Shown here: positions 21,705 to 62,682 of the stretch, in pieces
Layout of the letters: each line of letters starts with the position of its first letter
Numbering within the stretch: the first letter of the stretch is position 1
Source of the DNA: a virus
Taxonomy: Duplodnaviria > Heunggongvirae > Uroviricota > Caudoviricetes
Direction: 5' to 3' (one strand)
IMG/VR virus record: IMGVR_UViG_3300013936_000013
Coordinates: 77,246-141,245 of that record
DNA length: 64,000 nt
Notes under the pieces: model-generated
Databases searched by the model: none
What the model saw: only the letters and a program-made list of their open reading frames with translations
What the model was told of the DNA's origin: nothing
Made by a program: the position numbers and the translations under genes

Positions 21705-22643
21705 TTAGCTTCCTCCTTTGGTGCTATTCATACCATAAATATTGCTTTGATATAATTCAATCCACAATTTTTCTTTTTCATTTAACTAATCTCTTGGGCA
21801 TTCTTCAAGAACCTCAAAGGTAAAATTCCAAATACCATCTTGTTGCATTGAAGTATAAAGTTTGTTAGATGCTGAAGCCCCAATGCCGCAACCGCACTTA
21901 CAATGTTGTTTAAAACGTTCTCCAATAGAAACACTCTAACCAATGTAACACTGTTGCGTTTTTAAATTAGTAATTTTATAAATACCAGTTTTATCAGTTT
22001 TACCTACAATTCTAGTACTCATTTCAGATACTTTCTTTTGTAAGTATTCAGACCAAATAAGTTTATTTAAAACTGTAACATTCCTAAAGCTGCTTCTTAA
22101 ATTGAATAGTAAGTTAATATCATTTAATTCATTTTCGCTCAAGGTAATTTTATAGAAGTCAAGTTTCTTTTTCTTTTCTTCTTCTCTTAACTACGCTTCA
22201 ACGCCTGCGGCGAGTGATGCTCTAATCTTACTTAAATCTAATTCAGCTTGTTTCTTTTGGACTTGTAAATTCAAGATATATTTATCAAAATCAGATTCCT
22301 TTTTAGAATACTCATTATCAAGAGTCTCCATATAAAAATGTGCGGCATCCTCTGCTGTGCGCTTATAGTCTAAGGCTTTTTTCGCTTCAGCCTCAGCTTC
22401 TTTCTTCTAATTAGCTAAAACCGCATATTCATTGCCGAGACTATCTAATTCTACCGTTAAATCAAGAATTGAATCATGTAATCTCTATTCTTCTGAAGTG
22501 TCTAGCTCTTGTTTCTTTTTTAATTCTTCCTATAAAGAATTTATCTTATCACATTGCTAGTTATGCTAATAAACTAAATAAATAATAATTCCTGAAAGAA
22601 ATAATAAGCTAAATACAACGAGACAAATAATAAATACTTCCAT
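21705..22643 (-). CDS. free-standing GIY-YIG endonuclease fused in-frame to N-terminal TM/coiled-coil region; ~10 in-frame TAG
   Basis: GIYKITNLKTQQCYIG[TAG]SVSIGERFKQH and LNEKEKLWIELYQSNIYGMN motifs; ATG 22643 to TAA 21705 is open apart from TAG codons; region shows no long ORF under the standard code. Confidence 0.6.
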
Positions 22644-27686: not shown

Positions 27687-28578
27687 TTAAATATTCATCT
27701 CCTAACAACATTTCTAATGTAATCTAATCTCTTTCCCAATAAGGAATTCGTACTAATGGTATATTATTTTCTCTACAATATTGATTTTTAATTTTATCAT
27801 TCTTCTAAATAGATTCTAAATCATAGGTAAAAAAATTCTATTCTTTAAAATGTTGTATCCCATCAAATTCAATCAATCTAATTAATTTTTCCTTTTGATA
27901 AATACCAAAATCATATCTTAAAGGTTTAATATTTTTTAACTCTTTAAAAGTAACTTGCTTTTTATATTCAATATGATTAATTTTTAATATATTTTCAATA
28001 TTAATTTCACCAATAGAAGTTGATATGCATCCACAAGACTACACAGTTCCGTCTTTCAAATGAGAACTGGAAACTTCATGCTATTTTCCACAATCACATT
28101 GACAAACCCAATACATATGAGAACCATCTTTCATTGAGGTTGGATACATTGCAATTAATTTACCAAATCTTTGTCCTTTTAAATTTTCAAAAGTTTTATG
28201 ATAAGGACAATTCACTTTACCACAACTATTAACAGAACCTCCATTTAAATTATTTGAAGTTACTTCATGTTCATTTCCGCAATCACATTTACATTCCCAA
28301 ATAATACTTCTATGAAGTCGTTTTCCAGTATCTTTTATTACAGTTAAATGTCCAAATCGCCTTCCGACTAAACGAGTACTTAATTCAACTTCCTTCTTAG
28401 GAGGAATTAATTTTTTATCAATAATTACTTGATAATCTGGATTAGGCCAACTTCCTGTTTTAGTTACAATATATCCTTTATCTCGCATAGCTTTCTAAGT
28501 TCTACCAAAGCTAGTTTTTAAAGTAGAAAGACTATAACCATACTATTTACTAAATTCTTCTTTAGTCATATTAGTCAT
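27679..28578 (-). CDS. putative nuclease: tandem Cys-rich zinc-ribbon repeats + C-terminal PD-(D/E)XK (Vsr/DUF559-like) domain; 4 in-frame TAG
   Basis: Two repeats of W.C.CDCG.EHEV.S..L..G.V.SCG; C-terminus YDFGIYQKEKLIRLIEFDGIQHF...NIPLVRIPYWE resembles the Vsr-like endonuclease fold; GGAG RBS + ATG 28578; sits between topo II A and B genes. Confidence 0.5.
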
Positions 28579-29083: not shown

Positions 29084-30177
29084 CGTGTCACTCCTATGTT
29101 TCCATAGGCACTGACTAACTTTTACTCTCTTAGAGAGGAAACCATTTCGGTATTTCATTAGCTTCGTTTCCTAAAACTAAACTGCGTATCAATAGCAGCC
29201 CTACTTCCCTGCCCAGAAGACTTAGGGAATAGTCGATACAGGTTCAAATATTTATCCATTTCTTTTCTTTTTTCTTATAAATAGGAAGATTTTTATAACT
29301 TCTCCCCCAAAGCATTGCTTGAAATGCTTGATATGAAATTCTACTCTTATAGTCTTCATAGATTTGCCGAGCATTTTCATTTACATATCTTTGTCTAATG
29401 GCAATAACTTCTTCATTGGTGAAAACTGCCGAAGCTCCATTTTCGCCACAACTGTTTTGATAAATATAATATTTTTTATTTTCTTCTGTAAACACTTCTG
29501 GCATTATATGTGCCCAAGATTTTCCTTGCCACACAGCTTGAAAAGTTCCAAAAGAAACTATATCTTTATATTTCTCATAAACATCTTTTTGCTTCAAATG
29601 ATTGTTATATGCTTTTCTTATTTCAATAACATCTTGTTCTGTCAGTTTTGAACGTCCATTATTTTCACCAATGGATTGCTGATCTCCGCCTTCAGAGCAA
29701 TTATATCCTTTCTCAATAGAATTATAATATCGAATCCAATAAGATTCTCTTTCATTCAATTTTTCTATTGAACACTCTTCAATTACTTCATAAGTAAAAG
29801 CATCTTTTCCATACTTTTTTATTGCTACGTCAACAGGAATTCGACTAGACTCTCCTTTTGTCTAATGTTCTTTAAAACGACGCTCACAATCATTTGATTG
29901 CCCAATATAACATTTGCCATTTTCTTTTTTTGTAATTTTATAAATTCCTACCATTTTTATTCTCCTTCATTCTATAAAAATTTTATTTGAAAGAGAATGG
30001 ATAAATATTAGTTTCCCACGGGATTCCCATGCCTTTCAGTTTAGGGTTCCCCGTTAGCAAAATTCTTTTTCTCTTTCATATTTATGTGAGAACCGTATGG
30101 GTCACATAAATATGTCCTGTCCAAAAAAATTTTACCCGCTTGATCAAGCGTAAAGTTTTTCATACGCCGAATAGTTG
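29084..30177 (-). mobile_element. group I intron (1094 nt) in topo II subunit B gene, carrying GIY-YIG homing endonuclease ORF
   Basis: 5' exon ends ...GACGU, intron ends ...GACACG, exon 2 starts UGAUGGC; join gives DADVDG Toprim motif; P/Q elements (UGCUAACGGGGAACC...GGAAUCCCGUGGG) and R/S elements (CGACUAUUCC...AAAGUUAGUCAG); exon-1 frame hits TGA 45 nt into the intron. Confidence 0.75.
29244..29954 (-). CDS. GIY-YIG homing endonuclease with NUMOD-like repeats (intron-encoded); 1 in-frame TAG
   Basis: GGAGAAT RBS + ATG 29954; MVGIYKITKKENGKCYIGQSNDCERRFKEH[TAG]TKGE...; C-terminal repeats GENNGRSKLTEQDVIEIRKAY and GENGASAVFTNEEVIAIRQRY. Confidence 0.75.
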
Positions 30178-36596: not shown

Positions 36597-36664
36597 TATA
36601 TTATAATTATATCATATTTTATAAAAAAAATCAACGATGGATTTTTAACTATCCATCGTTGATT
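36597..36664 (-). promoter_or_regulatory. terminator hairpin + conserved TGATATAAT promoter cassette
   Basis: aatcaacgatgga...tccatcgttgatt hairpin then tatattataattatatcat motif. Confidence 0.55.
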
Positions 36665-36670
36665 TATTAT

Positions 36671-37906
36671 TTATGCCTTTTTCTTCTCCAAGAACTTGTT
36701 AGATACGTTCTTGAAACTAAAGCTACCATCATTAGGGTCTCGATAAACGATGCCTTCACGCAGAACAGCAGGATTTACAACAGACTTACCATCTGCCAGA
36801 GCCTTCATCTCTTCCATGGTATCAGGATTAACCCACTCAGTAGACAAGATAGGAACCCACTTCATATCCCAACTCTTCAAAATCTCTTGACCCTCAAGAG
36901 AGGAAATACGACCTACATCAGAACGAATGAAATTGAAACCGTAGAAATCATTTTCCTTCAACTTCAGCGGATTGCCCTGCACATTGCCAACAGACTCACC
37001 CTGTACGCAAACATACTTCAACTCAGGATTATCCTTCAGATACTGCTTCAAATGATTCTCAATATCATACTTAAATGCCATCTCCCAATAAATGTTATCA
37101 TCGTGATAGCACTCCTGCTCAGGAGTCAGCTGACGAACATTGCGGGAAAGCACATAAAACTCAAACTTATTGAAAGGCTTACGCTCCAGAATATAGGTAC
37201 TAGAAGTACCATCCAGCTTTTCACTAGCAATCAGCTTACGCTTATCCTTCAATACAAAAGGCATATTCTCAACGCGCTCTTCATCAGTCTTATGAATATA
37301 CTCAAAATGGGTCGGAAAATGAGTAGGAATCTTATCTCGCTTCTTACCGAAGAAAACAAACAGAATCTTACGACCCCAAGAAGTCTTCATCAGCTTACGG
37401 AAAATAGGCTTCTTAAACAGCTTAGCATTACGCTGCGCCATTGCCTTATACTTCTGATTTGGGTCTGCGGTAACATTAGCCTTTCGCGCATTATCTGCGG
37501 CATCAGCATAAGTTACACCCAAAATTTCGGTAACACCATCACCCAGATGCAGCTCAACACCCTTATCAGTCTTAATGGTAGGCTCGCCACCAACAGGAGT
37601 AACAACAGTCCAACCATCAAAATCCAGCGGATGCATCAGCAAACCCTGAGACAAAACCTTGCACATTCTCTGAGTCTTAATCTTATATTTCTTAGACTCA
37701 AGGAAAGAAAACTCTTCAGCTGCAGGAACCTGACTATCTACCTCAAAATAGATAGCAATATCGCCAACCTTAAACTGGTCTTTCTTTACAACACACCACC
37801 AACCATTAGTACGAGCATACTCAACTCGGTCATAATTAGGAATAGGCTTAATCTCATCAACAGTAACCAAATAAGCAAGCTCACGCTGACCATTCTTATT
37901 CAACAT
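36671..37906 (-). CDS. ATP-dependent RNA/DNA ligase-like nucleotidyltransferase
   Basis: Motif I KLDGTS within 411-aa ORF; family assignment tentative. Confidence 0.5.
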   Translation of the reverse strand: MLNKNGQRELAYLVTVDEIKPIPNYDRVEYARTNGWWCVVKKDQFKVGDIAIYFEVDSQVPAAEEFSFLESKKYKIKTQRMCKVLSQGLLMHPLDFDGWTVVTPVGGEPTIKTDKGVELHLGDGVTEILGVTYADAADNARKANVTADPNQKYKAMAQRNAKLFKKPIFRKLMKTSWGRKILFVFFGKKRDKIPTHFPTHFEYIHKTDEERVENMPFVLKDKRKLIASEKLDGTSSTYILERKPFNKFEFYVLSRNVRQLTPEQECYHDDNIYWEMAFKYDIENHLKQYLKDNPELKYVCVQGESVGNVQGNPLKLKENDFYGFNFIRSDVGRISSLEGQEILKSWDMKWVPILSTEWVNPDTMEEMKALADGKSVVNPAVLREGIVYRDPNDGSFSFKNVSNKFLEKKKA

Positions 37907-37924
37907 ATAGACATCCCTCCAAAG

Positions 37925-38278
37925 TTAAATCATAGAACTGTAATAAGTTTCTTCTTCGTACTCGCGACGTTCCTGCTCCTCGCGAGTCCCGCAGAACTCA
38001 TAAAGCATCCCCGCAGACTCAATAGTAACTTCATTACCGCCTGCGGTGTTGATATGAATGGTTTCTCCGACACAATAATCAAAAATCATTTCGACAGAAG
38101 CATCATCAAAGTAATTACAAAAAATATCATTTGCGGCTTCCCAGAAAAAATCAATGTAATTATCTCTATTGATGTTAATGCCGACTGCATCTAGCGCATT
38201 ATCAATCTCCAAATCCTGAGCCACACTCTTTTTAAGATTTTCAACAATCACAATAAAAATTTCTTTTGTCATTTTCAT
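37925..38278 (-). CDS. acidic hypothetical protein (117 aa)
   Basis: Intact ORF. Confidence 0.4.
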   Translation of the reverse strand: MKMTKEIFIVIVENLKKSVAQDLEIDNALDAVGININRDNYIDFFWEAANDIFCNYFDDASVEMIFDYCVGETIHINTAGGNEVTIESAGMLYEFCGTREEQERREYEEETYYSSMI

Positions 38279-38336
38279 TTCCCCTTTCTTTATATATATT
38301 ATATCATTTTTTTAATAAAAAATAAAGATACAATTT

Positions 38337-38528
38337 TTAAATTGAGTAAAAATGAAATTGTACCATAACTACCCAATAGAAAAAGGTTAAAAGTGAAGAA
38401 AAAATAATACCAATAGCATAACAAAAATCAGGTTCATTAGGATGATAACTTTTACAAAAATTAGTTGCTAATCTTCTAGTGATAAAACAAAAAACGCATC
38501 CAATGATAAAAATAATATAATTAAGCAT
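38337..38528 (-). CDS. small membrane protein (63 aa)
   Basis: Two hydrophobic segments. Confidence 0.35.
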   Translation of the reverse strand: MLNYIIFIIGCVFCFITRRLATNFCKSYHPNEPDFCYAIGIIFSSLLTFFYWVVMVQFHFYSI

Positions 38529-43437: not shown

Positions 43438-44100
43438 TTAATCTTCTTTCCAATGATGATTACGCCAATAGGCTAAAGTATGTGTGGGTTCAAACATTTT
43501 CTCTGTTGATATTTCTAAAGTGAGGCGGGAAGCAATATCTTTATCGCTCTCTAAGGCTGAGGTTAAAGTTTCAACGTCTTTATCTTGAAGAGATTGAATG
43601 TAATTAGTTAATTCTTTAAGATTTGCAATCTGATTATCTCTAACTTCTCTATCTCTTTTATTTTCTTTTTCATTATCTCTTTGGATATGAGCTTGAGAAG
43701 CATATTCACAAACTTTGCAATAGTCATAGAATGTTGCAGGATTAAAGATAATTGCATCATATGCAGCTTCAAAACTTAAATATCCATGAGCCTTATTGTA
43801 AATATTATTATACCATGAAATAAAACCTTCATGCTTTTTAAAATCAGACCAATAGCAACAAACAAAATAATTATAAGGTATTGATTGAACCTCTAAAGCA
43901 TAAGCATGAATTTCATCAATAGACAAAAGTGAAATGATTTGAGAATAAGACGCGGGTGGCATGACATAGTTGCGCACAAAGTCTTTAGCTATAACGTCTC
44001 TATACTTCTCGAATCCCGCGCGTGTAGGTTGATATAATAATTTTCTATATTTAAATTCATAGAATTTGTCTTTAATAAAATTTAGCAGTTTCAATATCAT
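43438..44100 (-). CDS. hypothetical protein, paralog of next gene
   Basis: Shares IIFNPATFYDYCKVCEYAS-like block with 44072..44968 product. Confidence 0.4.
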   Translation of the reverse strand: MILKLLNFIKDKFYEFKYRKLLYQPTRAGFEKYRDVIAKDFVRNYVMPPASYSQIISLLSIDEIHAYALEVQSIPYNYFVCCYWSDFKKHEGFISWYNNIYNKAHGYLSFEAAYDAIIFNPATFYDYCKVCEYASQAHIQRDNEKENKRDREVRDNQIANLKELTNYIQSLQDKDVETLTSALESDKDIASRLTLEISTEKMFEPTHTLAYWRNHHWKED

Positions 44101-44968
44101 ACCCCTCTTCAGTGGCTTCTTTCACAACTTGATTAAGAGCTTGCAAGAAGCTATTGTTATTTTCTTTGTTTAATCTTTCTGCGATTTCAGTATCTTCTTT
44201 AGCTACTTGAGTCATTTGTTTAGTAGCTTCGTCTTGAGCTAATTGTAAATCATTTTTTAGATTATTAAGAAGTTTAATTTGGCACTCTCGAAGTTCATAT
44301 TCTTTTTTTCTTTTAATTTTTAATACAGCCTGTCTAGTTTCTTCTTCTTTCTTTTCACGAGCTTCTTTGATAAATTTAGAAAAATAACTACAAAGAAGAG
44401 CATAATCTCGAAAGGTCTTAGGATTGAAGAAAATAGGTAAAATTAAAGAACCGAAACCAGTGTTATAAGAATGAAAATCTGCATATTCAGAAAAAAGAAT
44501 CGTTCTGGTTTCATCTTCCCAATAATAAAAAAGATTTATTGCATCATTTAAGTTTGACTTATATCCCATTTCAACATCTTTTTTATAGGCTTCAAAGGTA
44601 TATCTTTTTTGATAATATTTATCAAAAAAGTTACGTCTAAAATTTAAAGGATACTTAAGATTGGCAGGAGAAAGAAAAACTTCAGAAAAGAAAGGACGAA
44701 AAGTATTAAGACCTTCAATAATAGCAATGATTTGTTCATACGTCATTTCAGGAAGAATTCGTTTAGGAAAACAAGTATTTAGATATTCTTTAGATTTTTT
44801 ATAAGTATCATAGCGAGCAGGTAAATCATTTTTATAAGTAACAGCAGTATAATAACGAATAGTGTCTTGATGAGTAGGATTCTGTTGATACCAAGTTTCC
44901 ATATCAGGAGTGCCATAAATTAATCTAGTCCATAAACTCATTCTATTATCCCATCTTTCTTTTTTCAT
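44072..44968 (-). CDS. hypothetical protein, paralog of previous gene
   Basis: IFFNPKTFRDYALLCSYFS block; first gene of the long minus-strand block. Confidence 0.4.
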   Translation of the reverse strand: MKKERWDNRMSLWTRLIYGTPDMETWYQQNPTHQDTIRYYTAVTYKNDLPARYDTYKKSKEYLNTCFPKRILPEMTYEQIIAIIEGLNTFRPFFSEVFLSPANLKYPLNFRRNFFDKYYQKRYTFEAYKKDVEMGYKSNLNDAINLFYYWEDETRTILFSEYADFHSYNTGFGSLILPIFFNPKTFRDYALLCSYFSKFIKEAREKKEEETRQAVLKIKRKKEYELRECQIKLLNNLKNDLQLAQDEATKQMTQVAKEDTEIAERLNKENNNSFLQALNQVVKEATEEGYDIETAKFY

Positions 44969-44970
44969 TT

Positions 44971-44998
44971 TGTATATATATTATAACAAATTTTTATT
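44971..44998 (-). promoter_or_regulatory. conserved TGTTATAATATATA promoter at head of minus-strand block
   Basis: Plus ttgtatatatattataacaaatttttat. Confidence 0.5.
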
Positions 44999-45029
44999 AA
45001 AATTTCAATAGCTAATATTCTATGCGGGT

Positions 45030-45058
45030 TTGCTAAAAGAAAAATATTATGGTATAAT
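45030..45058 (+). promoter_or_regulatory. sigma70-type promoter for plus-strand DGR island (TTGCTA-17 nt-TGgTATAAT)
   Basis: -35 TTGCTA 45030-45035, 17-nt spacer, extended -10 TGGTATAAT ending 45058. Confidence 0.55.
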
Positions 45059-45177
45059 AGAATGATTGAAAATAAAGGAATTGTCTTATGGACGAAAATA
45101 AATAATATTTAAGATTTATTTTTAATATTTAAATAGATATATTATATATCTAATAAGGAAAGAAAAGGAGTTTTTAT

Positions 45178-46857
45178 ATGCCAACAAACAATGAAAATAT
45201 TGCGGTTCTTTGGTAGGGTAAAAGCTGGACAGTTCTTGACAAAATTTTAAAGCAAATGAATAATGATATTGCGGAGGTAGCAGCTCAAGTGAATACGGGT
45301 TTAAATGCTCTAGTTGCTTCTCAGTTTGCAGCAGCTAGAACTGGTAAAGTTTTTACAACTAAGTTTCCACGATATGAAATTTCAACAAGTCCAACTGGTA
45401 TTAAGATGGATGATAATGAAGGCATGGTATGCATCCCTTCAACTCCTACTTCTAAGAATACTAATGACTATGAAAGTGAACCAATGTTCCAGATTTTGGA
45501 ATGTAACTGGGAACTAGATAATGCGGGTAATATTAATATTACTGCAATTAAAGGTTTGAACAGTGAGTTCGCTCGTGATGGCTCAAATGGACAAGTAGGT
45601 ATTATTAATATGCCTTGGTATGTAAAGAGCTGGGAAGATGAAAATTACTGGTATATTTCAGTATCTGATACTCAATATTCTGGTTATCAACCTCTTGGTG
45701 AATGCATTAAACCAGATGGTAGTCTTCAGGGCTTTATGGTTCATGCTAAGTATGCTATGGTTGAGATTGAGGGTAAGCCATATAGCGCTTCTGGCCGTAG
45801 ACCATGCGCGGGAGGACAGCAACCTACTAATGTTTTTCATGTAGAAGGTGGAGACGATGTAACAGAGAAACCTACTATTGTAGCTCCATCTTATAGTGGA
45901 TTAATTAACTATTGTCATAAGCATAGTAATTTCTATTGTGCAGAAACTAGTAATGATGTTTTCTTTATGCAATTACAGTATATGATTAAATATGCAACTT
46001 TAAATTCACAGAGTGTATTGAATGGTTGTTTTAATTATAGCTATAATTATAAATGCACCGTTGCAGAAAAGAAAACTAGAGGTATTATTATTGCCACATC
46101 TAATGCTAATAATCTAGTAGTTGGTTCTACTTGCTCTATTGGTACAGTAAGTGGAGATAGATATTATGCCACTCAAAATGATATTCTATATAGCAGAAGA
46201 ATTAGTAAGATTGAGCAGTATGATGCTAGTAACTCTAAAGTTTGGTTTGAAACTGATTTGCCTGAAGGTTATAGTTTTGATACTGACACTACTTATTATT
46301 TAATTACAATGCCTTGGTATACTGGTAGTTGTGATAATGTTTTAGGTATGGATGGTTCTGCGGGTAATCCCACTAATGGTAAATATCCTGCTCTGATTGG
46401 TGGTATGGAATATTTTGTAGGTGGATTTGAAACCTTGGGCAATGTAGTAATGGACATTCAAGCAGAAGAAGGTTCTACTGTTCGTCGTGATTTCTATATT
46501 GCGCATGATGCTACTATTCTCACTACGGATATGACTATTGTTAAGTCTAAGTTTAAAAAGAGTAAATATACTCGACCTGGTTATGACTTCTGGATTGCTA
46601 AGCATGGTATTGATTTGGATAATGGAATGATGATTCCTACTTTAGGTGGCGCTTCTGACCATACCGGATTCTGTGATTATTCTTGGGCGGATTAGGCTAC
46701 TAGTGGACAGAGAGAAGCTCTATTCTTCGGGCGTCTGGGCTATGGCTCCTGGCGTGGTGCTTGGAGTCTGGATGCGGACGGTGGGCTCGGGCTCACCGGG
46801 TGGAATCTCCTCTCCCGTATAAGCCCGAATGGTATGTATGGAAATTTAAGCACTTAA
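45178..46857 (+). CDS. DGR target protein (559 aa) with C-terminal variable region; 2 in-frame TAG
   Basis: AAAGGAG RBS + ATG 45178; TAG at 45217 and 46693; VR lies in the last 55 codons; stop TAA 46855. Confidence 0.7.
46724..46816 (+). repeat. DGR variable repeat (VR)
   Basis: 93-bp match to TR with 16 mismatches, all at positions that are A in TR. Confidence 0.8.
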
Positions 46858-46875
46858 AACAATAGGAGGTAAGTT

Positions 46876-47229
46876 ATGGTAGAATTAAGATCTTGTGAAA
46901 AACAACCTGAATTCTAGTACTTTCCTCTCCCTGACACTGATTTAGCAGATGTAATTATTTGTCGCAATGAAAGAACTGAAGAGGTAGAAAATTCTAATGG
47001 ATTAGAGTCTAATGAAAAAAAGATTACAATAATGTATGTTTATGACTCTAATTCTTTTAGAACAACTTTGGACAAATCTGTTATAGAGGAAAACTTAGAT
47101 TTTTATATTAATTATGAAGAGACAAAACCAGATTATCCAAAAGAGATTGATGATTTGAAATCTCAATTAATGGATACTCAAATGGCTTTATGTTCTATTT
47201 ATGAAGCGATGGAGGCGCTAAGTTCATGA
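46876..47229 (+). CDS. avd: Avd-like DGR accessory protein (117 aa); 1 in-frame TAG
   Basis: AGGAGG RBS + ATG 46876; between VR and TR as in canonical DGRs; identity by position and size only. Confidence 0.45.
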
Positions 47230-47345
47230 TTATGGCAAAAATTTATTACAACTTAATCAAGAATGGTCTAAAAACCATCGATGATGTGCCCGAAAAATTG
47301 CGGGCAGAGGTCCAGAAGTTGCTGGACAAAGATAAGAAAAACTAA
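47226..47345 (+). CDS. hypothetical 39-aa protein
   Basis: ATGA overlap with avd-like gene; MIMAKIYYNLIKNGLKTIDDVPEKLRAEVQKLL. Confidence 0.3.
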   Translation: MIMAKIYYNLIKNGLKTIDDVPEKLRAEVQKLLDKDKKN

Positions 47346-47414
47346 TTTTAATAACAATACAAACTTTTGATTAAATAATAAATAGCAAAAAATAAGGTTT
47401 TATACTTCGAGAGG

Positions 47415-47507
47415 TCTTCGGGAATCTGAACAATGGCTCCTAGAGTGGTGCTTGGAATCTGAATGCGAACAATGGGCTCGGGAACACCAGGTGGAATATC
47501 CTCTCCC
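47415..47507 (+). repeat. DGR template repeat (TR)
   Basis: A-rich copy of VR; in target frame encodes many AAY codons (AAT AAC AAT ... AAC AAT). Confidence 0.8.
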
Positions 47508-47511
47508 TTTT

Positions 47512-47578
47512 CTCTTTTGAGTTTAGAATATCAAAAGAGTACTGGCGGCTATAAGCCGCCAGTATATTTTTGTTTTTT
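47512..47578 (+). terminator. two hairpins immediately 3' of TR, second GC-rich with T-run
   Basis: ctcttttga...tcaaaagag and tactggcgg...ccgccagta followed by tatttttgtttttt. Confidence 0.5.
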
Positions 47579-47777
47579 ATATGTAGCTTTAGATATTCTT
47601 TTAAAGTATAAAACACCCTAAAAAGGTCTTTGCTTAGAGTATTTTACTCGAAATTTGCAATGATTAATCTAGTTCCATTGGAGGACTAGTTATAATGAGG
47701 TCAGTAAATTATTATCTATTAGAAAGGATGATGATTAAAAGCGTTGTTAATTAATCAAAAGAGAAAGAAGGCTAGCA

Positions 47778-48980
47778 ATGGCAGTTCACTCTTACTGCAA
47801 GAATAAAGACATTTCAGATGTCAAGTTTATTTATTATTGTGCAAAAGATTGTTTACATGATAAATGGCGTCGTGATGACGTAGTAAGATTTTTAAACGAA
47901 TATAACCCATTGTTCACTAGAAGACAGATTCTCGAACAAATTAATAAGGATAAATCTGTATTTGACTCAACTTTAATGAGAGTCGCAGAAGAACTTAGTA
48001 ATGAAATAAAAACAAAAACAGTCCACTTTAGACCGATTCGTTATAAAGAAAAATATGATGCTAATTCCAAAAAATTAAGGATTATAGGCATCCAATCTGT
48101 TAAGTAGCAAATATATGATTATGTTGCGGTTAAAGGTGCCCAAGAAATGTGGGATTGCAAAATTGGTTATTACCAGTGCGCATCACTGCCAGGCCGCGGT
48201 CAAGTATATGGTAAAAGCATGATTGAAAAATGGATACGTTCTCCAAAAACAAGAGACAAATGTATTTATGTTGTTAAAGGAGATATTAAAAAATGCTATC
48301 CTTCAGTATCTATTCCAATCATTAAAAAACTATTGAAAAAAGATATTAAAAATGATGATTTACTATATCTAATATTTACTTTAATAGATTCTTTTGATAG
48401 AGGACTATCAATAGGTTCCTATCTTAGTTAGTATCTCTGTAATTATTATCTTTCTTATGCTTATAGCTATATGGATAATGAATTAAGAAGATATTATTCT
48501 TTTAAATTATTTTATATGGATGACTTCATTATGATTGGCGAAAATAAAGAATAGCTTGTTAAAGCTATGCAGAAATTCATTTCTTATATAAAAGAAAAAT
48601 TAGATTTGACAGTAAAACCAAACTGGGAAGTCTTTCCTATTGATTATATAGATAGCCACAAGAAACGGCATGGTAGACCCATAGATATGATGGGCTATGT
48701 TATTTATCGAGACCACACAACAGTTAGAGCTTGTATTTTTCTATCAATTAGACGTTCTTATTTGCGTGCGGCTAAGCGATATGTTGATGTTAGACCTAGA
48801 AAAAGGATACCTGTGGAAGCTGCCCATAGATGCGTTTCTTATTTTGGATGGCTAAAGAATTCAAGCTCAGGAACTTTTATATTTAATTATAATGTAAAAG
48901 TAATTTTTTCCTTAGCTAAATGGTCGGTTTCTAAATTTAATAGAGACAAAAATCAATGTTCTGAAAAGCGAGGTACATAA
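47778..48980 (+). CDS. DGR reverse transcriptase; 3 in-frame TAG
   Basis: ORFs 47778..48107, 48147..48431 and 48567..48980 share one frame and are joined by TAGs; motifs RIIGIQ, YVVKGDIKKCYPSV, LSIGSYLS[TAG] (DGR GxxxSQ hallmark) and YMDDFIMIG. Confidence 0.8.
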
Positions 48981-48981
48981 T

Positions 48982-49512
48982 ATGCCTTCTATTAACCATG
49001 GTTATCAAAAGCAAGAAGATGGGTCAATGACCCTCGTTGATTTGGCGGTTAAAGCAGAAAATGCCATTATGCCTGATGGCTCAACAGTAGAAGAAAATAT
49101 TGGTAATACCAATGATACTTTAAACAAGATGTTTAAATCTTTAACTACTACGGCAAAAAATATTACTCAAGCAGATACCATTACTTTAGATTCTAATATT
49201 ACTAATTAGGATTTCAAATATCTTATTATTTATGCAAAGTTAAATGATATTTTACTTGAAACAAAAGTAATTCCTATGATTAACCTATCAACCTCACCTG
49301 CGGTTGTTACTTATCATATTGTAGATGCGGCGGGAGCCACCTAGAAGACACTTTAGTATCAGGTTCAAGTTTCTGGAACTAATAAATTAGTTATTTCTAA
49401 TTTATATTGTCATACCATCCATGCAACAGAAGAGGAACTTACGTTCCAGACTTTGACCACACTTGGCGATGATACTTATACTATTACTGGAATTTATGCC
49501 AGTGTAAAATAA
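48982..49512 (+). CDS. hypothetical protein (176 aa); 3 in-frame TAG
   Basis: ATG 48982; reads through TAG at 49207 and two more to TAA 49510. Confidence 0.4.
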
Positions 49513-49514
49513 AA

Positions 49515-49556
49515 AATTGGGAGTTATTCGTAATTGAATAACTCCCAATTTTTTTA
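49515..49556. terminator. bidirectional terminator between plus-strand island and late minus-strand block
   Basis: aattgggagttattc...gaataactcccaatt then T-run. Confidence 0.7.
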
Positions 49557-49683
49557 TACATAGATATTATTTGCGGCAAGGATTTTTTTAACCTTATCTT
49601 TTAGTAAGCGAGGAACCTCCTCGAAAGTGCGTTCACCCGCAATAATTTTTTTTGCCCATAATTCAGCAATCATATTAAATACC

Positions 49684-50160
49684 TCATTGATATACTATTT
49701 CACTTAGCTCTAGAAGACAATCTTCTAAAGTTTTATTTGACTCATTTAGGCTTTTAACTTGCGCGGTCAATTCTGAATTAAGATTTTTTAATTCATCGTT
49801 TTCTTCTCCCAAAGTGTTTATTTTTTCTTTTAATTGATTGATTTCAGTTCTTTCACCAGTAGTAAATTCATAAACTCTTTCATTAGGATTCCCACCAGAA
49901 TATTTTTGAGTAGTGGCTACCCGCAAGTTTTTATTTTTTCGCATTTTAATCTTTAACTATTGATATTCTTTCTATGAAATACCAAGCAAAGAATACTCAT
50001 TTAGATCATAGACAGTATTCTAATCAGATGATAGCACTCCTTGAGCTTCATCCTCTTCGCAAAATAGCTTAAGATTATATTCCTCTTGATATTTAATCCA
50101 AGATGGATTTTTTAATAGGTCAACAATAAGACCTTTATGAATGACTTTATAGTACAACAT
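49684..50160 (-). CDS. hypothetical protein (~158 aa); 3 in-frame TAG
   Basis: GGAGATTAT RBS + ATG 50160; joins ORF 49684..49944 through TAGs. Confidence 0.4.
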
Positions 50161-50183
50161 ATAATCTCCTTATATAAAAAGAA

Positions 50184-50213
50184 AAATGGGAGCGCATAAT
50201 GCGCTCCCATTTA
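50184..50213. terminator. terminator hairpin after giant gene
   Basis: atgggagcgc ataa tgcgctcccat with flanking A/T runs. Confidence 0.65.
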
Positions 50214-50214
50214 A

Positions 50215-53200
50215 TTATTTCTTGCCAACAAAAATTGCAAAAGCGCAAGGGAAGTAAGAGTAAGCTGGATAGTTACTATTCCATTTACCTTCGCTATTGA
50301 CTGCACCGAAGCCATTAGGATAACTAATGAACTCTTGATTATCTTCATCTACATACTCAATATATGTAGAAGCTAACCAATAGTGCTAATTATCTATATT
50401 AACAGCTTCTTCTGGACGTCTACGAACTCTTGAAGGATCGTCAGTAAAGACTGCAAAAGTAGAACCTTCTTGAGCGTAGATTGGATATCTATCAACATCC
50501 ATTGCAATCTTAGAAATTTCTGCATTATTTGGAATCCAAACTTTATCCATATCAGTAATGAATGTAGAAGTATTATTCATTTTAATTGTAGTTCCAGTAT
50601 TACTGTTACTCCAATAATCATTAAAGAACTTTTCTTCATCAGACTCTGCGGCTAAGCTAGTTCCGCCAGTTACCTGAATTTCAGCGTAGTTACCAACTGA
50701 GCTCTTACGAGATTTAGGACTGATAACTGCCTGAACTAAACCAGGCAATAGATTATAAATATCATTATTAGCAATATCTCTTAGCTCACTGTACCACCAA
50801 CCGCCATTATTCCAAGATTCTCCTTTTAAGAAAGTATTGATTCTAACAGTTGCTCCTTTAACAACAGGGATTGTTAATGTTGCATCTTCAGTTAGCTCAG
50901 TAAAGCCTGCGGCGTTCCATACTGCGTCGCCATTATTCTTAGTCAAAGTAACTCCAGAAGATAGCTTAGATTGAGTTAAATCATAAACAACAGAAGTCTC
51001 ATCTGGAGAGGTAACTGTAATCTTTGTAAGTAATGGACGACCTAATCTATCTACATTATTAAAAGTTGGAGCAATAGTTACAGAAGTAATATCTTCAGTA
51101 TGCTCATATACGAAATTATCACTATCAGCATCAATATTACCAATTTTATAGCAATATGCTTTTCTTTCTTGACTATTCATTTGATATGCTTTCAAAGATA
51201 GCATATTAGTCAATAGAGTGATACCAGAAGCAGACATATCGGTTAGAACCAGCTGTTCTGTTTGTTTTACACCACGCTCATCAGGATTTAAAGTAACACT
51301 CTTACCCTAACCGAGCTTCCAACCATAGTCTGAATAACTCTTCGTACCTGCGGTGACCGTGTTAACTACCGCTTGGATCTAACCCCAAGAGCAATCAGAG
51401 AACTCCATGGGCTCTGCACTAGGTAGTTCAATCTTAGAAGCAACTGCAAAGCAGTAGATGGTACCATCAACCGCATTAACGCTTAGAGACTCCATATTAT
51501 CCAAAGAAGCAAAGTTTTCAGGGAACTTAAAGGTATCTGTTCTCCAACCAGGCACTCTGACTATTGTCCATCCACCTTTTAGCCACTTGCTCAAATCTTC
51601 ACCCTTTAACGGGTCTTCAACTGTGCTCATATTTACATTAGCTCCATATGCTATTGCAGTAGAAGGATTACCAGAAGCATCTTCTTCAGTACCTGTAATA
51701 GAGAAGTATGGAGTTGCAGAATTTAGATTTTTAACAGCTGTATCATAATCCTGTTTAAAGAAATAAATGTTATAGTGACGTAGCTTAGGTGTATAAGTTG
51801 CAGTTAAAGTGCGGTCTTCAGTTACTTTTAGATAACTACCGTTCCAAGAGCTATAATAATAATTGTACTGAGCATCTGTTGGTTTAGTAGGAGTATCAAT
51901 TACCACATAATCTAATCCACCAAAATTATTTGGGTCATATGCTGTTCCATCTGCATTATAACCATTAAAGTTGATTGGATTATAGCCATCTTCTCCACCA
52001 ATAATTTGATAAGAACATAAAGTAGTTCCATCATAATTCTTAAATGTTACGGTATATAGATGACGACCATATAGAATACTAATATTAGGCATATAGCGTT
52101 TATAAGCTGCCATCGCCGCATCTTCAATTTGAGCAACATCAATAGTACCAGAAATGTATGGATTAGTGTTACCATTATAAATGATACCAGCTTCATCCAA
52201 TCCTTTACAGCTTAAAAGTTGGTTAAATACTTCTTCACCATTGCCATCAAGATGCCATTGAATATCAATTAATCTCAAAGTCTAAAGGTTCTTAGCTTGT
52301 TTGATAATATTTACCAATAGCTAGTCTGCAGATGGATCACATTCCTCAACTGTAATAGTTGAAAGACTATCATAACCTTGCAAGGTTAATACGCTCAAAT
52401 GCGATAGATTCTATAATTTAATATTAGTAATTGTTTTAGGCAATTTTAAAATCTCAATATTGCTATTAGCTGCAAGAGTGACAGAAGGAATATTAGTATT
52501 CTCTGCATAGAAGTATCTTAATGCAATACAGCTATTTAGTCCAATAGTAGTGTTTAAATAGGTTAAACCAGTTAGAACAATCTTCTTTAATAGATTACTA
52601 TTAAAGGAAATGTTAGTACCGTTAGCCCAAGCATTATTTTCATAACCTTCAACTTCGCTACCTAATAGAACTTCTTGCAATTTCTTAGCTTGAGAAATAT
52701 CCAACCAACTTAAATACGCGGGAGCCAGGTCTCCTAAGCTAGTAATCAGAGATGCATTGTAGACATAAGTCTCAACACCGCCAGAACCAGTTGAAGTAAA
52801 GTCAGGAGCTTTAACTGTTGTAGGAACTCCTCGCTTAGCTTTTGTTCTAATATAATCACCATTGCCATATTTTACTAAGATATACATATCAGAGTAAGGA
52901 GTAATAGTTAAATCTTGGTTAGGTGCAACAACTTTATTTTCAGTAGGCTTAGTGATACGCATCTGAATAGCATCGCCTACTGCGGTTGGACCTTCATACT
53001 TAGAACTCATATAGCGGTCTTGATAGAATAAGAACCAGTCACGTTGTAGTTGCTTATTTCCTAGCATCATAGAAATATAAGTTCTATCATTATCATTTAA
53101 GTATGGATTGATATATTTCTTAAACATATCTTCAATCCAAATAGCTTCACACCAGTTAGCTTGATAATCAGAGAATTTTTTACTTAAACGAAATGCGTTA

Positions 53201-56200
53201 AATGCACCTTCATTTTCTTTCTCTTGAACCATTTTCTTGATATCATCAGCAAAGCATTGTTCTAGATTAATCCATAGAACTGAGTCTTCGCCACCATATG
53301 CTTCACTACCATCGCGATATTCAATACCATAACTATGGCTTAAACGACCAATGTTATCAATACCGAGAGCAGTATCATTATCGTAGTCATATTTAAAGTG
53401 CCAATGTTTACCATCATCAGTTGCCATAAATACGTTTTTAGCACGGTTATCAACCATCAGATGACGTTCAGTAAAGATGTCTAGCCAAATGGCAGAATCT
53501 TTGATAAAATAATCTTCAAATTCAGCTTTAAATTTAGCTAATCTATATTCAGCAGTATCTGCGGTGTAGGTTTTTCCATCATAAACAACAGCCTAAGGTA
53601 GCGTATTACCTGTAGCCGCCGCAGTATCAGTTGAATTAACCCAAGCTACAACTCTATGCAGATTGTCAATATCAGTTTGAGTATAGCCTTTCTTTGGAAA
53701 TCTAAATTCAAATCCTTCTTCCCAAGCATCGTTACTAAAATCTGCAGATTTAAAAGAACAAAGGGCAGATTCATTAGTCAGGAACTCAACGCAGCATTGC
53801 TCAGGATATTTACTTCTATCTTGACCGAAAACATTATAATTAGTTTTATCATTATTCATGTTTGCTTTTGCATAGAAAGTTAATTCAGGGTTAGGGTCTG
53901 CTGTATTTCTATGGAAAATAATGATAGGTTGACCTTCAATGGTGCCACGAATTTTATTGGTAAAACCTTGATTGTGAAGTTCAGTAATTAGCTCATCACG
54001 TTGAGTTGTGCGGTCAGCCTTAGGCTCATAGCCTTTTGCCGCAGCCATTTCAAGCAATTCATCAAGCTGAGGATCAGAGATGTAAGGATCATAAATATTA
54101 TATTCATCTGTCAAAAGAACATTATTTGCCCCTTCAGAAGAAGCAACGTCAACTTTCATACAGAAGTAATCTACACCCAAACTCTTATCAGATATTGCAA
54201 AGGTGGCTTCTTTAGCTCCTGTGTCTGCATGATTAAAACCATCAACTTGGAAATCCATATTTAGGTTTAGAGCTGCTCGACCATAACCCGCAGAAGAAGT
54301 ACCTTGCATACCAATACCAACATTTTTAGAGGTGAAACTCTTTCTGTTGTTATTAGGATCTACATAAGTAACATCGCCACGAACAGGCGGATTGTTTCTA
54401 TCTTTAATTTTAGAAGTAGGGAAAATAAATGGATACTGACTAGAGTCAGAATTAATAATCATATATTTAGACTGTAATTTATCAAGAACAATGTTATGAT
54501 AAGCGTCATATATATTATTTCTCTGATAACGAGCAATAATTTCATCAGATGTTGGAGCATCAAGAATAAAATTATTTAAGACTTCATATTGGTCAAGAAC
54601 TTTATTGTAAGTCTTAATTAAATAAACATCTAAGTCACATTCAGAAGAACCTAGAGTAATACTAACAGGATTAGTCTGAATGAATAAGTCGTCATTCTCA
54701 TAGATTGCGGCAGAGCAAGGAATACCTTGTAGATACCATAGAATCAAACTCTTTTGAGTTGAAGGATAAACAACTAAATCCATTTCAATATAAGAATCTT
54801 CCTTATAAGGAACTTCCATTTCAATATCACGAGAATTAAAGACACCGCGGTTGGCAAATAATCTTAAACCAACATTACTTGATTCATCAAAACAATTAAT
54901 AATTTCAGTATCATAGTTAATACTATTTCTGCACTTAAAAATCATTTTAATTGCTTTACCACTATTTTTAAAGTCCTATCCAAATAGTTTTAGTGGAATA
55001 GTAACTTTATCATTACTTGCCTTAATTCTTAGGACTGTTGCTCCATCTTCATCAGACTACCAGCCACCATTAACCCAGTCAAAGCTAGTTGGGAACTCAG
55101 TAGAATAGCCATTAGAAGTCCAAGAATTATAATTAGACTGCGCATTACTTCTACCAACAGCAGAAAAGTTTGCTTCAAGACTATTTGTAATAGGTTTAGC
55201 ATCAATTTCAAGTGCATTGACCTTCAATTCAATAGTTCTAGATTGAGTACCACATCTAATAATTAAGCGGCGGGCGTAGGTATTAGTAAACTTTAAGGTC
55301 CAGTGTTGTAAAGTTCGATCTGGATTAATAGCAATTGAACTAGCTCTTACCCATTCACCTGCACCATCATTAGCGTCAGTATTAAAATACCATTCTTCAA
55401 GTGAACACTGTCTATTATTGTTATTATTAGCTGTACTGTAATTTGGATCCCAGATTAAATAAGGGATAGAAACATTATCATATTCAGTAACCTCGGTCTA
55501 AGCAAAAGAAGAAGCAATAATAGGAGTTCCATTACCGCGACTAACAAAGATAATTTCATAATATAGTTCATTACTAATTAACTCTGCGCCATTTAAATTT
55601 GCGGTGACCCAGACTTTTAAAGGATATGCGCCATGTCCTTTGAAAGGAATATCCTGAGTTGAAATGCCACCAGAAGTAGAACTGATAATATCTTTAGACC
55701 AAATGACAGTTTTATTAGTTCCTGCGGAATACAATTCAAAGTGTACTGTCTTTTCAAAGCTACCGCCCGCAGTTACAGTATAGGTGAAAACCGCATTATC
55801 ATAGTATGCTTGATAGGCGTTAAAAGTAGAAGTCAGTTCTAGAGATACTGTTGTAATAGTCCATCTTAAACTTCTTACATTACCAGCATTATCAGTTAAA
55901 ATAACCTGAACTGAGTTACTACCACGAATTAGAGAATCAGTAATATCATAAGAATAATAACCTTGAGTTACATTAGTATTCTAATCTACTTTAACTCCAT
56001 TAACATTGATAACAATAGAACCATTGCCTGTTGATGCTCCATCGTCACTATATACAGAAGACCAGTTAAAACCAATATAAGTTTTTTCTTCACCTTTGTA
56101 AATAGTAGTCATGCTTGACGGAATCTCTGGGTCGTAGGTCATTTTGAAAGTAATACCATTACCGCCAGAACCGCCACCTGTACCTTCAATAGTAATAGTA

Positions 56201-56793
56201 CCTAGGGGAACCGCATCACCTTTTTTATACCATGAAAGCTCATGTGTAGTATTATCAAATTCAATATCTAAGTCTTCAAGAGCATTTAGATTTGCTACTG
56301 TTTCTTTTAATGCGGCGAGGTCATCGGCGGAAGCATAGTTAGGTAAAATACCATTAACTTCATCCTTAGTATAATAACCAGATAAGTCGGTCGCAATGGA
56401 TACACCACCAGTAATTCTTTCACCATTGCTTAGTAGATAGAATTTACTATCATCATCAATTTCATAGCCATCTGCTTTCTTTTGGGTGTTCTAATCTAAA
56501 GTATCTAGATAATCTAGAATTAGACTCAGCTGAGTTCTAACTGCAGTACCCGCAGATGTATATTTTTCGCCATTAAATTTATCAAATTTTTCATTAGTTA
56601 AGCCTTGACGAATATCCTCTAGTTCAGTTTGGCGATTATTACTTGAAAAAGTAGGATATTTAGTTAAAAGATTGTCAACTCTATCATTCAGAGTCTTCAT
56701 TGAATCTGACAGATTTCCGCCAGTCTCACCGACATATTCTTTGTTTGCTTCTGCTAGTAGGCGCAAGGCTTCTACAATAGATATTTTACTCAT
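50215..56793 (-). CDS. giant 2192-aa structural/adhesin-like protein (Ig-like and LRR-like regions; probable tail fibre or host-recognition protein); 12 in-frame TAG
   Basis: ORFs 56491.., 55498.., 53593.., 52411.., 51379.., 50386.. all share one frame; every gap between them was translated by hand and holds only TAG codons, no TAA/TGA; TAA in-frame just upstream of ATG 56793; stop TAA 50215. Confidence 0.7.
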
Positions 56794-60961: not shown

Positions 60962-61070
60962 ATATAAAAACAAGAGACATCAAGTAAAAGCAAACTTGTA
61001 ATTAATAAATATGGAGCTTTAATTTTGAAATTGCTGTACGTCTCTTTTAATATTTCACTAGGCTTTTATT

Positions 61071-61141
61071 GATATTGTTTGGACTCGAACCAAAAATCTT
61101 AGATTTACATTCTAATGCTATACCCATTTAGCTACAAAGGC
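61071..61141 (-). pseudogene. degenerate tRNA-like element (anticodon loop ATGTAAA = GUA, Tyr-like) with poor acceptor pairing
   Basis: Good D-arm (GCTA-AATGGGTA-TAGC), anticodon arm (TTAGA/TCTAA) and T-arm (TTTGG-TTCGAGT-CCAAA), but acceptor strands GCCTTTG vs CAATATC pair at only 4 of 7. Confidence 0.3.
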
Positions 61142-62044: not shown

Positions 62045-62102
62045 TTTTAATAGCGGTAGCACGAAGAATTGAACTCCGGCTACTAGCGTATTAACCACTC
62101 TA
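62045..62102 (-). pseudogene. truncated tRNA-like element (58 nt; acceptor + D-arm + T-arm, no anticodon arm)
   Basis: GGTAGCA...TGCTACC acceptor, D-loop AGTGGTTAA, T-arm CGGAG-TTCAATT-CTTCG, but only 9 nt where the anticodon arm should be. Confidence 0.25.
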
Positions 62103-62194
62103 CTATGCTACCACATAAAAACAAGATGAATATTTTATACATATCTTTTTCTTGTAAGAATTATAAATATTATATTGCTGTATTCATCTTTAAC

Positions 62195-62418: not shown

Positions 62419-62517
62419 ATGGTTGGGGATGAGAGACTCGAACTCTCACACCATCCGTCAGAGGGATGGGCTCTGGTGGTTTTAGAGACCACTGCTTTAA
62501 CCGTTAAGCAAATCCCC
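62419..62517 (-). tRNA. amber-suppressor tRNA (anticodon CUA), tRNA-Gln-like acceptor, ~96 nt (99 with encoded CCA), with 28-nt extra region
   Basis: Acceptor TGGGGAT/ATCCCCA (U1-A72, as in tRNA-Gln), D-arm GCTT-AACGGTTA-AAGC, anticodon stem GTGGT/ACCAC, loop CTCTAAA (U33, CUA, A37), then 28-nt insertion containing hairpin CCATCC-CTCTGAC-GGATGG (Gln CUG-type loop), T-arm GAGAG-TTCGAGT-CTCTC, A73, CCA. Confidence 0.7.
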
Positions 62518-62682
62518 ATTATCTTTATTTCTCTTAGATTGCTTTGCGTTATATCGCTTAGCCGCCTTGCAATTTGAACATCCATGTTTATTTTTGCAAT
62601 AACAAAGACAATAATCTTCTAACCAAAAATGGTATGGAATTGAAGGTTTAATTTTACGACGAGGAATCTTTTTACCTTTCAT
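62497..62682 (-). CDS. hypothetical basic Zn-ribbon protein (61 aa), overlaps 5' end of suppressor tRNA by ~20 nt
   Basis: Intact ORF with CxxC...CxxC; reality uncertain because of tRNA overlap. Confidence 0.25.
   Translation of the reverse strand: MKGKKIPRRKIKPSIPYHFWLEDYCLCYCKNKHGCSNCKAAKRYNAKQSKRNKDNGDLLNG

Follow-up and report, generated by a model that had tools for sequence, protein, structure and literature searches.

A diversity-generating retroelement without a recognisable Avd in a gut phage that appears to read TAG as glutamine

Can a diversity-generating retroelement (DGR) be functional when the gene for its reverse transcriptase (RT) is interrupted by three TAG codons? This question is raised by a locus in a stretch of 64,000 nucleotides (positions 77,246 to 141,245 of the IMG/VR record IMGVR_UViG_3300013936_000013, Caudoviricetes), which is referred to here as the window and whose own coordinates are used throughout. 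The original prediction, made from the sequence without database searches, described a DGR composed of a target gene, a variable repeat (VR), a template repeat (TR) and an RT, in which RT and target can be read only if TAG is a sense codon, and every test that was run agrees with this description. It is considered very probable that the locus is an active DGR that lacks the accessory protein Avd and belongs to a gut phage of about 141 kb in which TAG is read as glutamine.

Repeat pair, reverse transcriptase and target

The TR (47415-47507, plus strand) and the VR (46724-46816, plus strand) are both 93 bp long and form an ungapped alignment, in which each of the 16 mismatches falls on one of the 23 adenines of the TR (hypergeometric P ~6e-13), as had been predicted. 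When the 70 non-adenine bases of the TR were kept as a pattern with any base allowed at the adenines, only the TR and the VR matched in the 64-kb window, with 0 matches expected from shuffled versions of it, and the homology between the two repeats ends abruptly on both sides. In the frame of the target, 14 codons of the TR contain adenine and nine of these 14 are AAY, so the template is indeed largely built from AAY codons, in line with the earlier description.

The RT gene (47778-48980, plus strand) encodes 400 amino acids (aa) and contains in-frame TAGs at codons 110, 218 and 259 (48105-48107, 48429-48431 and 48552-48554), with the result that the standard code breaks it into three open reading frames (ORFs) at 47778-48107, 48147-48431 and 48567-48980. 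Both this split and the predicted motifs were reproduced, the GxxxSQ motif being IGSYLS-Q at residues 212-218, where Q is encoded by TAG, and YMDD lying at residues 246-249. The protein matches RVT_1 (E 7e-11) and phrog_1423, a family annotated as 'reverse transcriptase' (E 5e-71), and its best match in the Protein Data Bank (PDB) is 8ub7_A, the DGR RT of a Bordetella phage (E 4e-10), in which IGSLTSQ aligns with IGSYLSQ and YMDD with YMDD. A group II intron RT was matched at E 2e-3, and the scores against the NCBIfam group II and Drt2 models were far under their cut-offs. A homology search returned 654 related proteins, and 489 related loci were found in IMG/VR; residue 218 is Q in all 120 of the 120 homologues compared, while at codon 110 they have Q in 73 cases and H in 47. 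A simple search for paired repeats that mismatch only where one copy has A detected such a pair just upstream of the RT in the great majority of 80 fetched RT-related loci. The alignment, the nearest solved relative and these flanking repeat pairs indicate that the RT belongs to the DGR clade rather than to the group II intron, retron or defence RTs. In two of the IMG/VR loci (L036 and L045), the presumed TR copy has 12 and 17 adenines as opposed to about 23, and few AAY codons; here either TR and VR were mis-assigned by the script or the templates are degenerating.

The target gene (45178-46857, plus strand) encodes 559 aa when its TAGs are read through, of which there are two (45214-45216 and 46693-46695), or three in some alleles. 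The VR encodes residues 516-547 and thus lies, as predicted, within the last 55 codons. The protein matches phrog_17147 from end to end as well as a PHROG annotated as 'tail protein', and some of its homologues carry baseplate or fibre domains. The expectation of a C-type-lectin/FGE fold at the C-terminus was borne out, and the target is accordingly modelled as a tail or receptor-binding protein with a C-type-lectin/FGE-like C-terminal domain. In structure prediction and in the representative search, TAG-bearing proteins of the window were represented by the part beyond the TAG or by a homologue (P0121, 89% identical; P0263, 95% identical). TaqVP of Thermus aquaticus (PDB 5vf4), which has just 12% sequence identity to the target, belongs to a prophage DGR with Avd (PMC6328139). 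The target protein of the window is also present in a public collection, where the longest contig that encodes it has 141,265 bp.

Evidence for activity comes from the comparison of strains, among which the VR is hypervariable on near-identical backgrounds. L083 and L084, contigs of ~141 kb that stem from other samples, run colinear with the window for 7,680 bp, with differences at just 16 and 19 bases; 15 and 16 of these differences, respectively, fall in the VR, all at TR-adenine positions, which corresponds to a substitution density 435 to 1,224 times that of the remaining sequence. The TRs of both contigs are identical to that of the window despite their differing VRs. A fourth allele (L176) has 14 differences from the TR, again all at A positions, and for the four alleles that share the TR of the window, 61 of the 61 TR-VR differences are at TR adenines. 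At the protein level, target variants with 99.4-99.8% identity outside the VR have 10-13 substitutions among the 32 residues that it encodes. A further lineage, represented by L001 and L087 (the RT of L001 is 95% identical), has a TR that differs at four sites, and the non-adenine changes among these (TR positions 23, 26 and 32) recur in its own VR; therefore, information flows from TR to VR. Judged from these sequences, the element appears to be active or to have been so very recently.

Further VR alleles were sought in IMG/VR by an exact search with the VR flanks, which gave no match, and a metagenome scan with the 3' end of the VR returned one contig, L088 (OQVQ01004453.1, 4.4 kb). At positions ~300-380 this contig has just 83 nt (88%) in common with 46803-46887 of the window, that is, the VR 3' end and the sequence downstream of it, and what lies upstream of the match is unrelated, stop-rich and non-coding in appearance. 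L088 may be an assembly chimera at a hypervariable site and was treated as uninformative or chimeric.

TAG as a sense codon in the phage and in the template

When TAG is treated as a sense codon, the coverage of the window by ORFs of at least 100 aa rises from 67% to 83%, and one ORF of 2,192 aa replaces a series of fragments. The window then contains 61 in-frame TAGs within 23 of its 62 ORFs, and the genes that bear them include those for the RT, NrdD, RNase H and the 2,192-aa tail protein. The amino acid is indicated by sister strains: of the 20 codons that line up with a TAG in the target, the RT and two neighbouring genes described below (orf2 and orf5), 16 are CAG or CAA, the remaining four being two TAT, one GAA and one AAA; RT codon 218 in particular is TAG in the window and CAA in L001 and L087. 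This comparison indicates that TAG is read as glutamine in this phage (genetic code 15). Single TAG sites in the NrdD, RNase H, ThyX and GIY-YIG genes were also considered as indicators of the amino acid and were set aside as too poorly conserved, the strain comparison being used instead.

A means of decoding is provided by an amber-suppressor tRNA(CUA) at 62423-62518 on the minus strand (Rfam tRNA, 55.5 bits), which adjoins tRNA-Gln(CUG) and tRNA-Gln(UUG) and is also present in L001 (18315-18410). ARAGORN miscalls it as a tRNA with a 4-base anticodon, 'taaa', and reports no Sup tRNA, while the Rfam alignment and the fold show a cloverleaf with the anticodon loop C-U-CUA-A-A. It has an encoded CCA, A73 and a long extra arm of ~25 nt (a stem of 6-8 bp and a loop of 7 nt), and a long variable arm together with A73 is typical of bacterial tRNA-Leu, tRNA-Ser and tRNA-Tyr. 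Because of these two traits, a small probability is kept for the alternative that TAG is decoded as serine, leucine or tyrosine. This alternative is opposed by the acceptor stem of the same tRNA (U1-A72, G2-C71, G3-C70), which resembles that of tRNA-Gln under the known identity rules, by RT codon 218, a TAG where homologues have an invariant Q and sister strains have CAA, and by the codons opposite TAG as a whole, among which only two are TAT.

Several observations on the distribution of TAG and on the tRNAs stand beside this result. The genes for homing endonucleases in the replication module, all on the minus strand (21705-22643, 27679-28578, 13742-14464 and 29244-29954), stand out by their many in-frame TAGs, with eight in a GIY-YIG gene and seven in an HNH gene; two further GIY-YIG-like genes identified by motif alone have one each, and the neighbouring replication genes have almost none. 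Two other tRNA genes are unusual in shape. The tRNA-Tyr(GTA) at 61070-61141 (minus strand) is just 72 nt long with a class I shape, bacterial tRNA-Tyr normally having a long variable arm, and a 59-nt tRNA-like sequence at 62054-62112 (minus strand; Rfam tRNA, 44 bits), which ARAGORN does not call, has acceptor, D and T arms and no anticodon arm. The closest IMG/VR relatives outside the strain cluster of the window, L003 and L074 (RT 55% and 46% identical), have the gene order of the window (target, orf2-like gene, TR, RT) but lack in-frame TAGs, their code being the standard one; therefore, recoding probably arose after the layout of the cassette.

The reassigned codon also occurs inside the template. 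Under the standard code the TR would have a single in-frame stop, the TAG at 47441-47443 (plus strand), which would be glutamine here, and the matching codon of the VR (46750-46752, plus strand) is TGG. Among the alleles with an identical TR, this codon is TAG in L083, TGG in the window and L084, and TCG in L176. In P0230, a variant of the protein from a strain that is more divergent and whose TR was not seen, this position is occupied by Leu, which suggests a TTG codon. In the L001 lineage the corresponding TR codon is AAG, and the VR of L085/L086, which carries the marker bases of that lineage, has TAG; on a contig that does not include its TR, adenine mutagenesis has probably created an amber codon in this VR. 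Standard-code relatives differ in this respect, as none of their 23 distinct TRs, each read in the frame with most AAY codons, contains a stop, nor any codon that adenine mutagenesis could turn into one. This agrees with the classical idea that AAY codons are preferred since they cannot yield a stop (PMC6328139). The contrast between recoded and standard-code templates is suggestive and is drawn from two TR types in one recoded clade. Within the parts of the literature returned by a keyword search, no case was found of an in-frame TAG in a TR that is written into a VR.

Neighbouring genes, spacer and the absence of Avd

Between VR and TR, the original prediction had placed an 'Avd-sized gene', and it had called the DGR 'complete'. 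Two ORFs lie there: orf2 (46876-47229, plus strand; 117 aa, one TAG) and orf3 (47226-47345, plus strand; 39 aa, no TAG), the latter a member of the CD1375 family (NF040910, E 4e-15; phrog_1382). A third, orf5 (48982-49512, plus strand; 176 aa, three TAGs), starts 2 nt past the stop of the RT; it is acidic (isoelectric point, pI, 4.8), is conserved beside the RT solely in the lineage of the window, and had no family match in profile scans. None of orf2, orf3 and orf5 matched Avd in a screen that covered the cassette. Avd is a basic four-helix bundle, and an Avd or HRDC accessory gene is typical of DGRs, if not universal.

Little credence is given to the view that the DGR is canonical, with orf2 as a strongly diverged Avd or a protein that does the work of one. 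It would explain why orf2 has the size and position of avd, and why its homologues lie directly beside the RT gene in many relatives, where they overlap the RT 3' end. However, orf2 has a pI of 4.2 and a beta-sheet with one long helix, it has no family match, and the 197 members of its family found by profile search include none with a Pfam domain. In standard-code relatives, orf2-like and CD1375-like genes occur just downstream of the RT, and in prophages without any RT (L089-L091) such a pair lies between a 769-aa gene, itself downstream of Prophage_tail, and the genes for holin and endolysin. The CD1375-like family of orf3 recurs in the window itself at 49554-49673 on the minus strand, as part of a trio of genes that converges on the cassette (49554-56793). 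Because of their kin in RT-less prophages and this minus-strand trio, orf2 and orf3 are therefore taken to be tail-module genes: orf2 would be an acidic tail-module protein that is neither Avd nor a component of the DGR, and orf3 a gene of the tail/lysis module that is likewise not part of it. From this comparison of gene orders, the TR-RT unit appears to sit in front of or behind the orf2/orf3 tail-module genes depending on the lineage.

A fusion of Avd to the RT was also considered and rejected, the extra length over the Bordetella enzyme Brt being only ~27 residues at the N-terminus and ~28 at the C-terminus. The DGR thus appears to be without Avd, and the term 'complete' would hold only in the sense of functional without it. 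Such DGRs have been reported before, as only two of 18 DGR-bearing Zeta crAss-like phages have Avd (PMC12386605).

The other two members of the minus-strand trio are a tail protein of 2,192 aa (50215-56793; 12 TAGs; phrog_14959) and orf6 (49684-50160; 158 aa), a coiled-coil protein whose C-terminal CLLELSEIVY resembles, by eye, the C-termini of orf2-like proteins. In the sister lineage of L001, only short genes are called beyond orf5, and the 2,192-aa gene appears to be absent or replaced.

Other parts of the cassette had been credited with possible signals. The two hairpins noted just 3' of the TR (47512-47565, plus strand) do exist, at 47512-47539 and 47539-47565, but they are found in the window/L001 lineage only, being absent from L003, L074 and more distant relatives, and the second, a stem of 12 pairs with a T-run after it, resembles a terminator on either strand. 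About 130 nt downstream of these TR-adjacent hairpins, a small hairpin, GAGTA-TTT-TACTC, is followed by GAAATTTG (47637-47657, plus strand) and is a candidate element of an RNA that includes the TR-to-RT spacer. The spacer motif (G/A)AAAU(U/A) is conserved across clades of the RT family, with a short hairpin before it. In an anchored stem search with a random control, 12 of 14 unique spacers had a stem of at least 4 bp that ended exactly at the motif, the stem coming in four distinct sequences and chance predicting ~14% per sequence; a column-wise test of covariation was dropped, as differences in loop length shift the register. The arrangement of a hairpin and then GAAAUUUG is kept across clades with four stem variants, and the commonest type of relative (L006) is without the stem. 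Hairpin and motif are tentatively regarded as a candidate functional element, as a lead rather than a result. An Rfam scan of the TR-RT spacer matched no known RNA family and gave only sub-threshold noise.

At their 3' ends, VR and TR are identical up to CCTCTCCC and diverge fully thereafter. The one feature noted there is a 7-nt inverted repeat, TCGGGCT/AGCCCGA (46787-46793/46822-46828), which spans the 3' boundary of the VR; two of its bases are mutated adenines, and it shortens to 5 nt in other alleles.

Upstream of the target, the proposed sigma70-like promoter (TTGCTA-17-TG-TATAAT) is present as a motif at 45030-45058 on the plus strand, in a 209-bp divergent intergenic region, but as evidence for a promoter of the cassette it does no better than chance, 23 such sites having been found in the region against 24.6 expected.

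The description of the cassette as the sole sizeable plus-strand island of the window was essentially correct, with two further short plus-strand ORFs at 20-800. Two longer plus-strand ORFs were examined and rejected: that at 36659-38194 overlaps a real minus-strand gene (36671-37906) in antisense and is apparently a non-coding shadow of it, and that at 37052-38368, considered as a second island, has a junk-like translation and lies opposite the same gene. The rest of the window encodes a DnaE/YorL-like polymerase, topoisomerase II, NAD ligase, DnaB, primase, RecJ, PhoH and NrdD, together with a cluster of 12 tRNAs called by ARAGORN and the one tRNA-like sequence seen by Rfam alone. The polymerase has its best match in SPbeta-like phages, at no more than 40% identity, and a DNA search with 44000-52000 against GenBank phages gave no match. 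The RT family occurs mostly in prophages of Lachnospiraceae, and a Bacillota host is therefore likely. On the available evidence the phage is not crAss-like, having a polymerase of DnaE/YorL type, with its capsid and terminase genes outside the window; crAss-like phages are characterised by a PolA or PolB polymerase and by a major capsid protein and terminase of crAss type.

Weighing of the evidence, related systems and implications

Several points weigh against the locus being an active DGR that works without Avd. Activity is deduced from differences between assemblies of different samples and not from variation within one population. The Bordetella system requires Avd, and no substitute for it was found here; an accessory gene could lie outside the 64-kb window, and orf5 may or may not have a role in the DGR. 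No clear element of the IMH (initiation of mutagenic homing) type and no conserved hairpin was found 3' of the VR. The terminator-like hairpin at 47539-47565 lies between the TR and both the spacer motif and the RT, which looks awkward for a single RNA of TR and spacer, and the promoter, as a motif match only, is unsupported. Finally, the class-II-like long extra arm and the A73 of tRNA(CUA) are unusual for a tRNA-Gln.

Two further explanations fare worse than those already discussed. The first, that the locus is a decayed DGR in a phage with the standard code, its RT a pseudogene with three stops and its TR/VR differences relics, would account for the fragments of RT obtained under table 11 and for the lack of a Sup tRNA in the ARAGORN output, but is hardly tenable given the tRNA with anticodon CUA, the in-frame TAGs in essential, conserved genes and their exchange with CAR between strains, a full-length RT that is 95% conserved in another lineage with two TAGs retained, and a VR that differs between genomes otherwise identical over 7.7 kb. 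The second, that the VR varies by point mutation or recombination under diversifying selection and without reverse transcription, draws on the fact that the receptor-binding tips of tail fibres are commonly hypervariable, and is given next to no probability in the face of the restriction of all 61 differences across four alleles to TR adenines, the copying of non-adenine TR changes to the VR in another lineage, and the DGR-family RT that adjoins the two repeats.

With an active, Avd-less DGR as the preferred explanation, the following course of events is proposed. An RNA that comprises the TR and the spacer downstream of it would be reverse-transcribed by the 400-aa RT, which would copy all bases faithfully except adenine and might suffice for this step without Avd, and the spacer motif may have a part in it. 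The resulting cDNA would then replace the 93-bp VR at the 3' end of the tail/receptor-binding gene, so that up to 14 codons of the ligand-binding surface of the C-type-lectin fold would be re-randomised, which gives room for ~3e13 different proteins. Translation of orf2, orf5, the RT and the target would be possible only with the phage's own tRNA(CUA), and this would link the element to the stage of infection in which recoding is in force, presumably a late one. As TAG specifies an amino acid in this phage, a TAG codon is allowed in the template, and a template TAG would be written into the VR as TAG (Gln), TGG (Trp) or TCG (Ser).

A more far-reaching proposal, to which we give somewhat less than an even chance, is that recoding and DGR are functionally coupled. 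In this proposal, the reassignment of TAG would free the template from the constraint that it must not yield a stop codon, so that TAG, or AAG (which is mutable to TAG), could serve as diversification codons, and amber codons would be written into the receptor-binding site that are readable only when the code is changed. The three TAGs of the RT would at the same time restrict homing to the phase in which the long-armed tRNA(CUA) is expressed, and the RT family would work without Avd.

The system can be compared with several that have been described. Like the DGR of the Bordetella phage BPP-1 (Mtd/Avd/TR/Brt), it shows an adenine-specific transfer from TR to VR, a C-terminal VR in a tail-fibre protein of C-type-lectin fold, and the motifs IGxxxSQ and YMDD. 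Unlike BPP-1, it is without Avd, has the order target-orf2-orf3-TR-RT, is recoded at TAG and has no recognisable IMH or downstream hairpin; its RT has 400 aa as opposed to 328 aa in BPP-1, which includes the ~27 and ~28 extra terminal residues mentioned above. A likeness is also found in gut phages of ~38 kb of the L006 type and in Lachnospiraceae prophages (Blautia, Dorea, Coprococcus, Hespellia), which have the same RT family (~48% identity) and target family (~38%). Their DGRs have a TR of equal length, the AAY design and the (G/A)AAAU spacer motif in common with the window, but they use the standard code, have VR, TR and RT contiguous (with gaps of 150 bp and 205 bp), carry the orf2-like and CD1375-like genes downstream of the RT, and have TRs without a stop or a stop-prone codon.

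DGRs recoded at TAG are also known, in the persister phages of the infant gut I57/I79/I123_PsAC1 (bioRxiv 10.1101/2023.08.07.552389) and in Zeta crAss-like phages (PMC12386605). These have in common with the window several TAGs in the RT, the GxxxSQ motif, and an adjoining recoded tail target with a C-terminal VR that changes over time; most of the Zeta crAss DGRs are, like that of the window, without Avd, and suppressor tRNA-CTA genes are present in those phages. In contrast to the crAss-like phages, the RT and target families of the window are those of Lachnospiraceae prophages. Another gut phage, phAss-1 ('Phassvirus'), resembles the window in its genome of ~136 kb, its reading of TAG as Gln, its tRNA-Sup-CTA genes and the concentration of TAG in virion genes, and the paper that describes it mentions no DGR or RT (PMC10607447). 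No close DNA or polymerase match for the window was found in the GenBank phage collection, the inclusion of phAss-1 in which is unconfirmed. Against this background, what may be new here is the TAG codon of the template, a clear case for independence from Avd in this RT family, and the odd suppressor tRNA.

The locus offers a clean and well-supported case in which a DGR needs an alternative genetic code, in a lineage of large gut phages, and one that annotation with the standard code would miss, since the RT, the target, orf2 and orf5 would all be fragmented. It points to a phage whose receptor-binding surface changes from host to host and from sample to sample on an otherwise identical locus, and in which the reassigned stop codon itself serves as a variable codon. 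The RT family is a good candidate for tests of whether some DGR RTs work free of Avd, which would be useful for engineered tools of targeted mutagenesis. If the use of TAG in the template is general, recoding would widen the sequence space that is open to a DGR, and some tail-fibre alleles would strictly need the suppressor tRNA.

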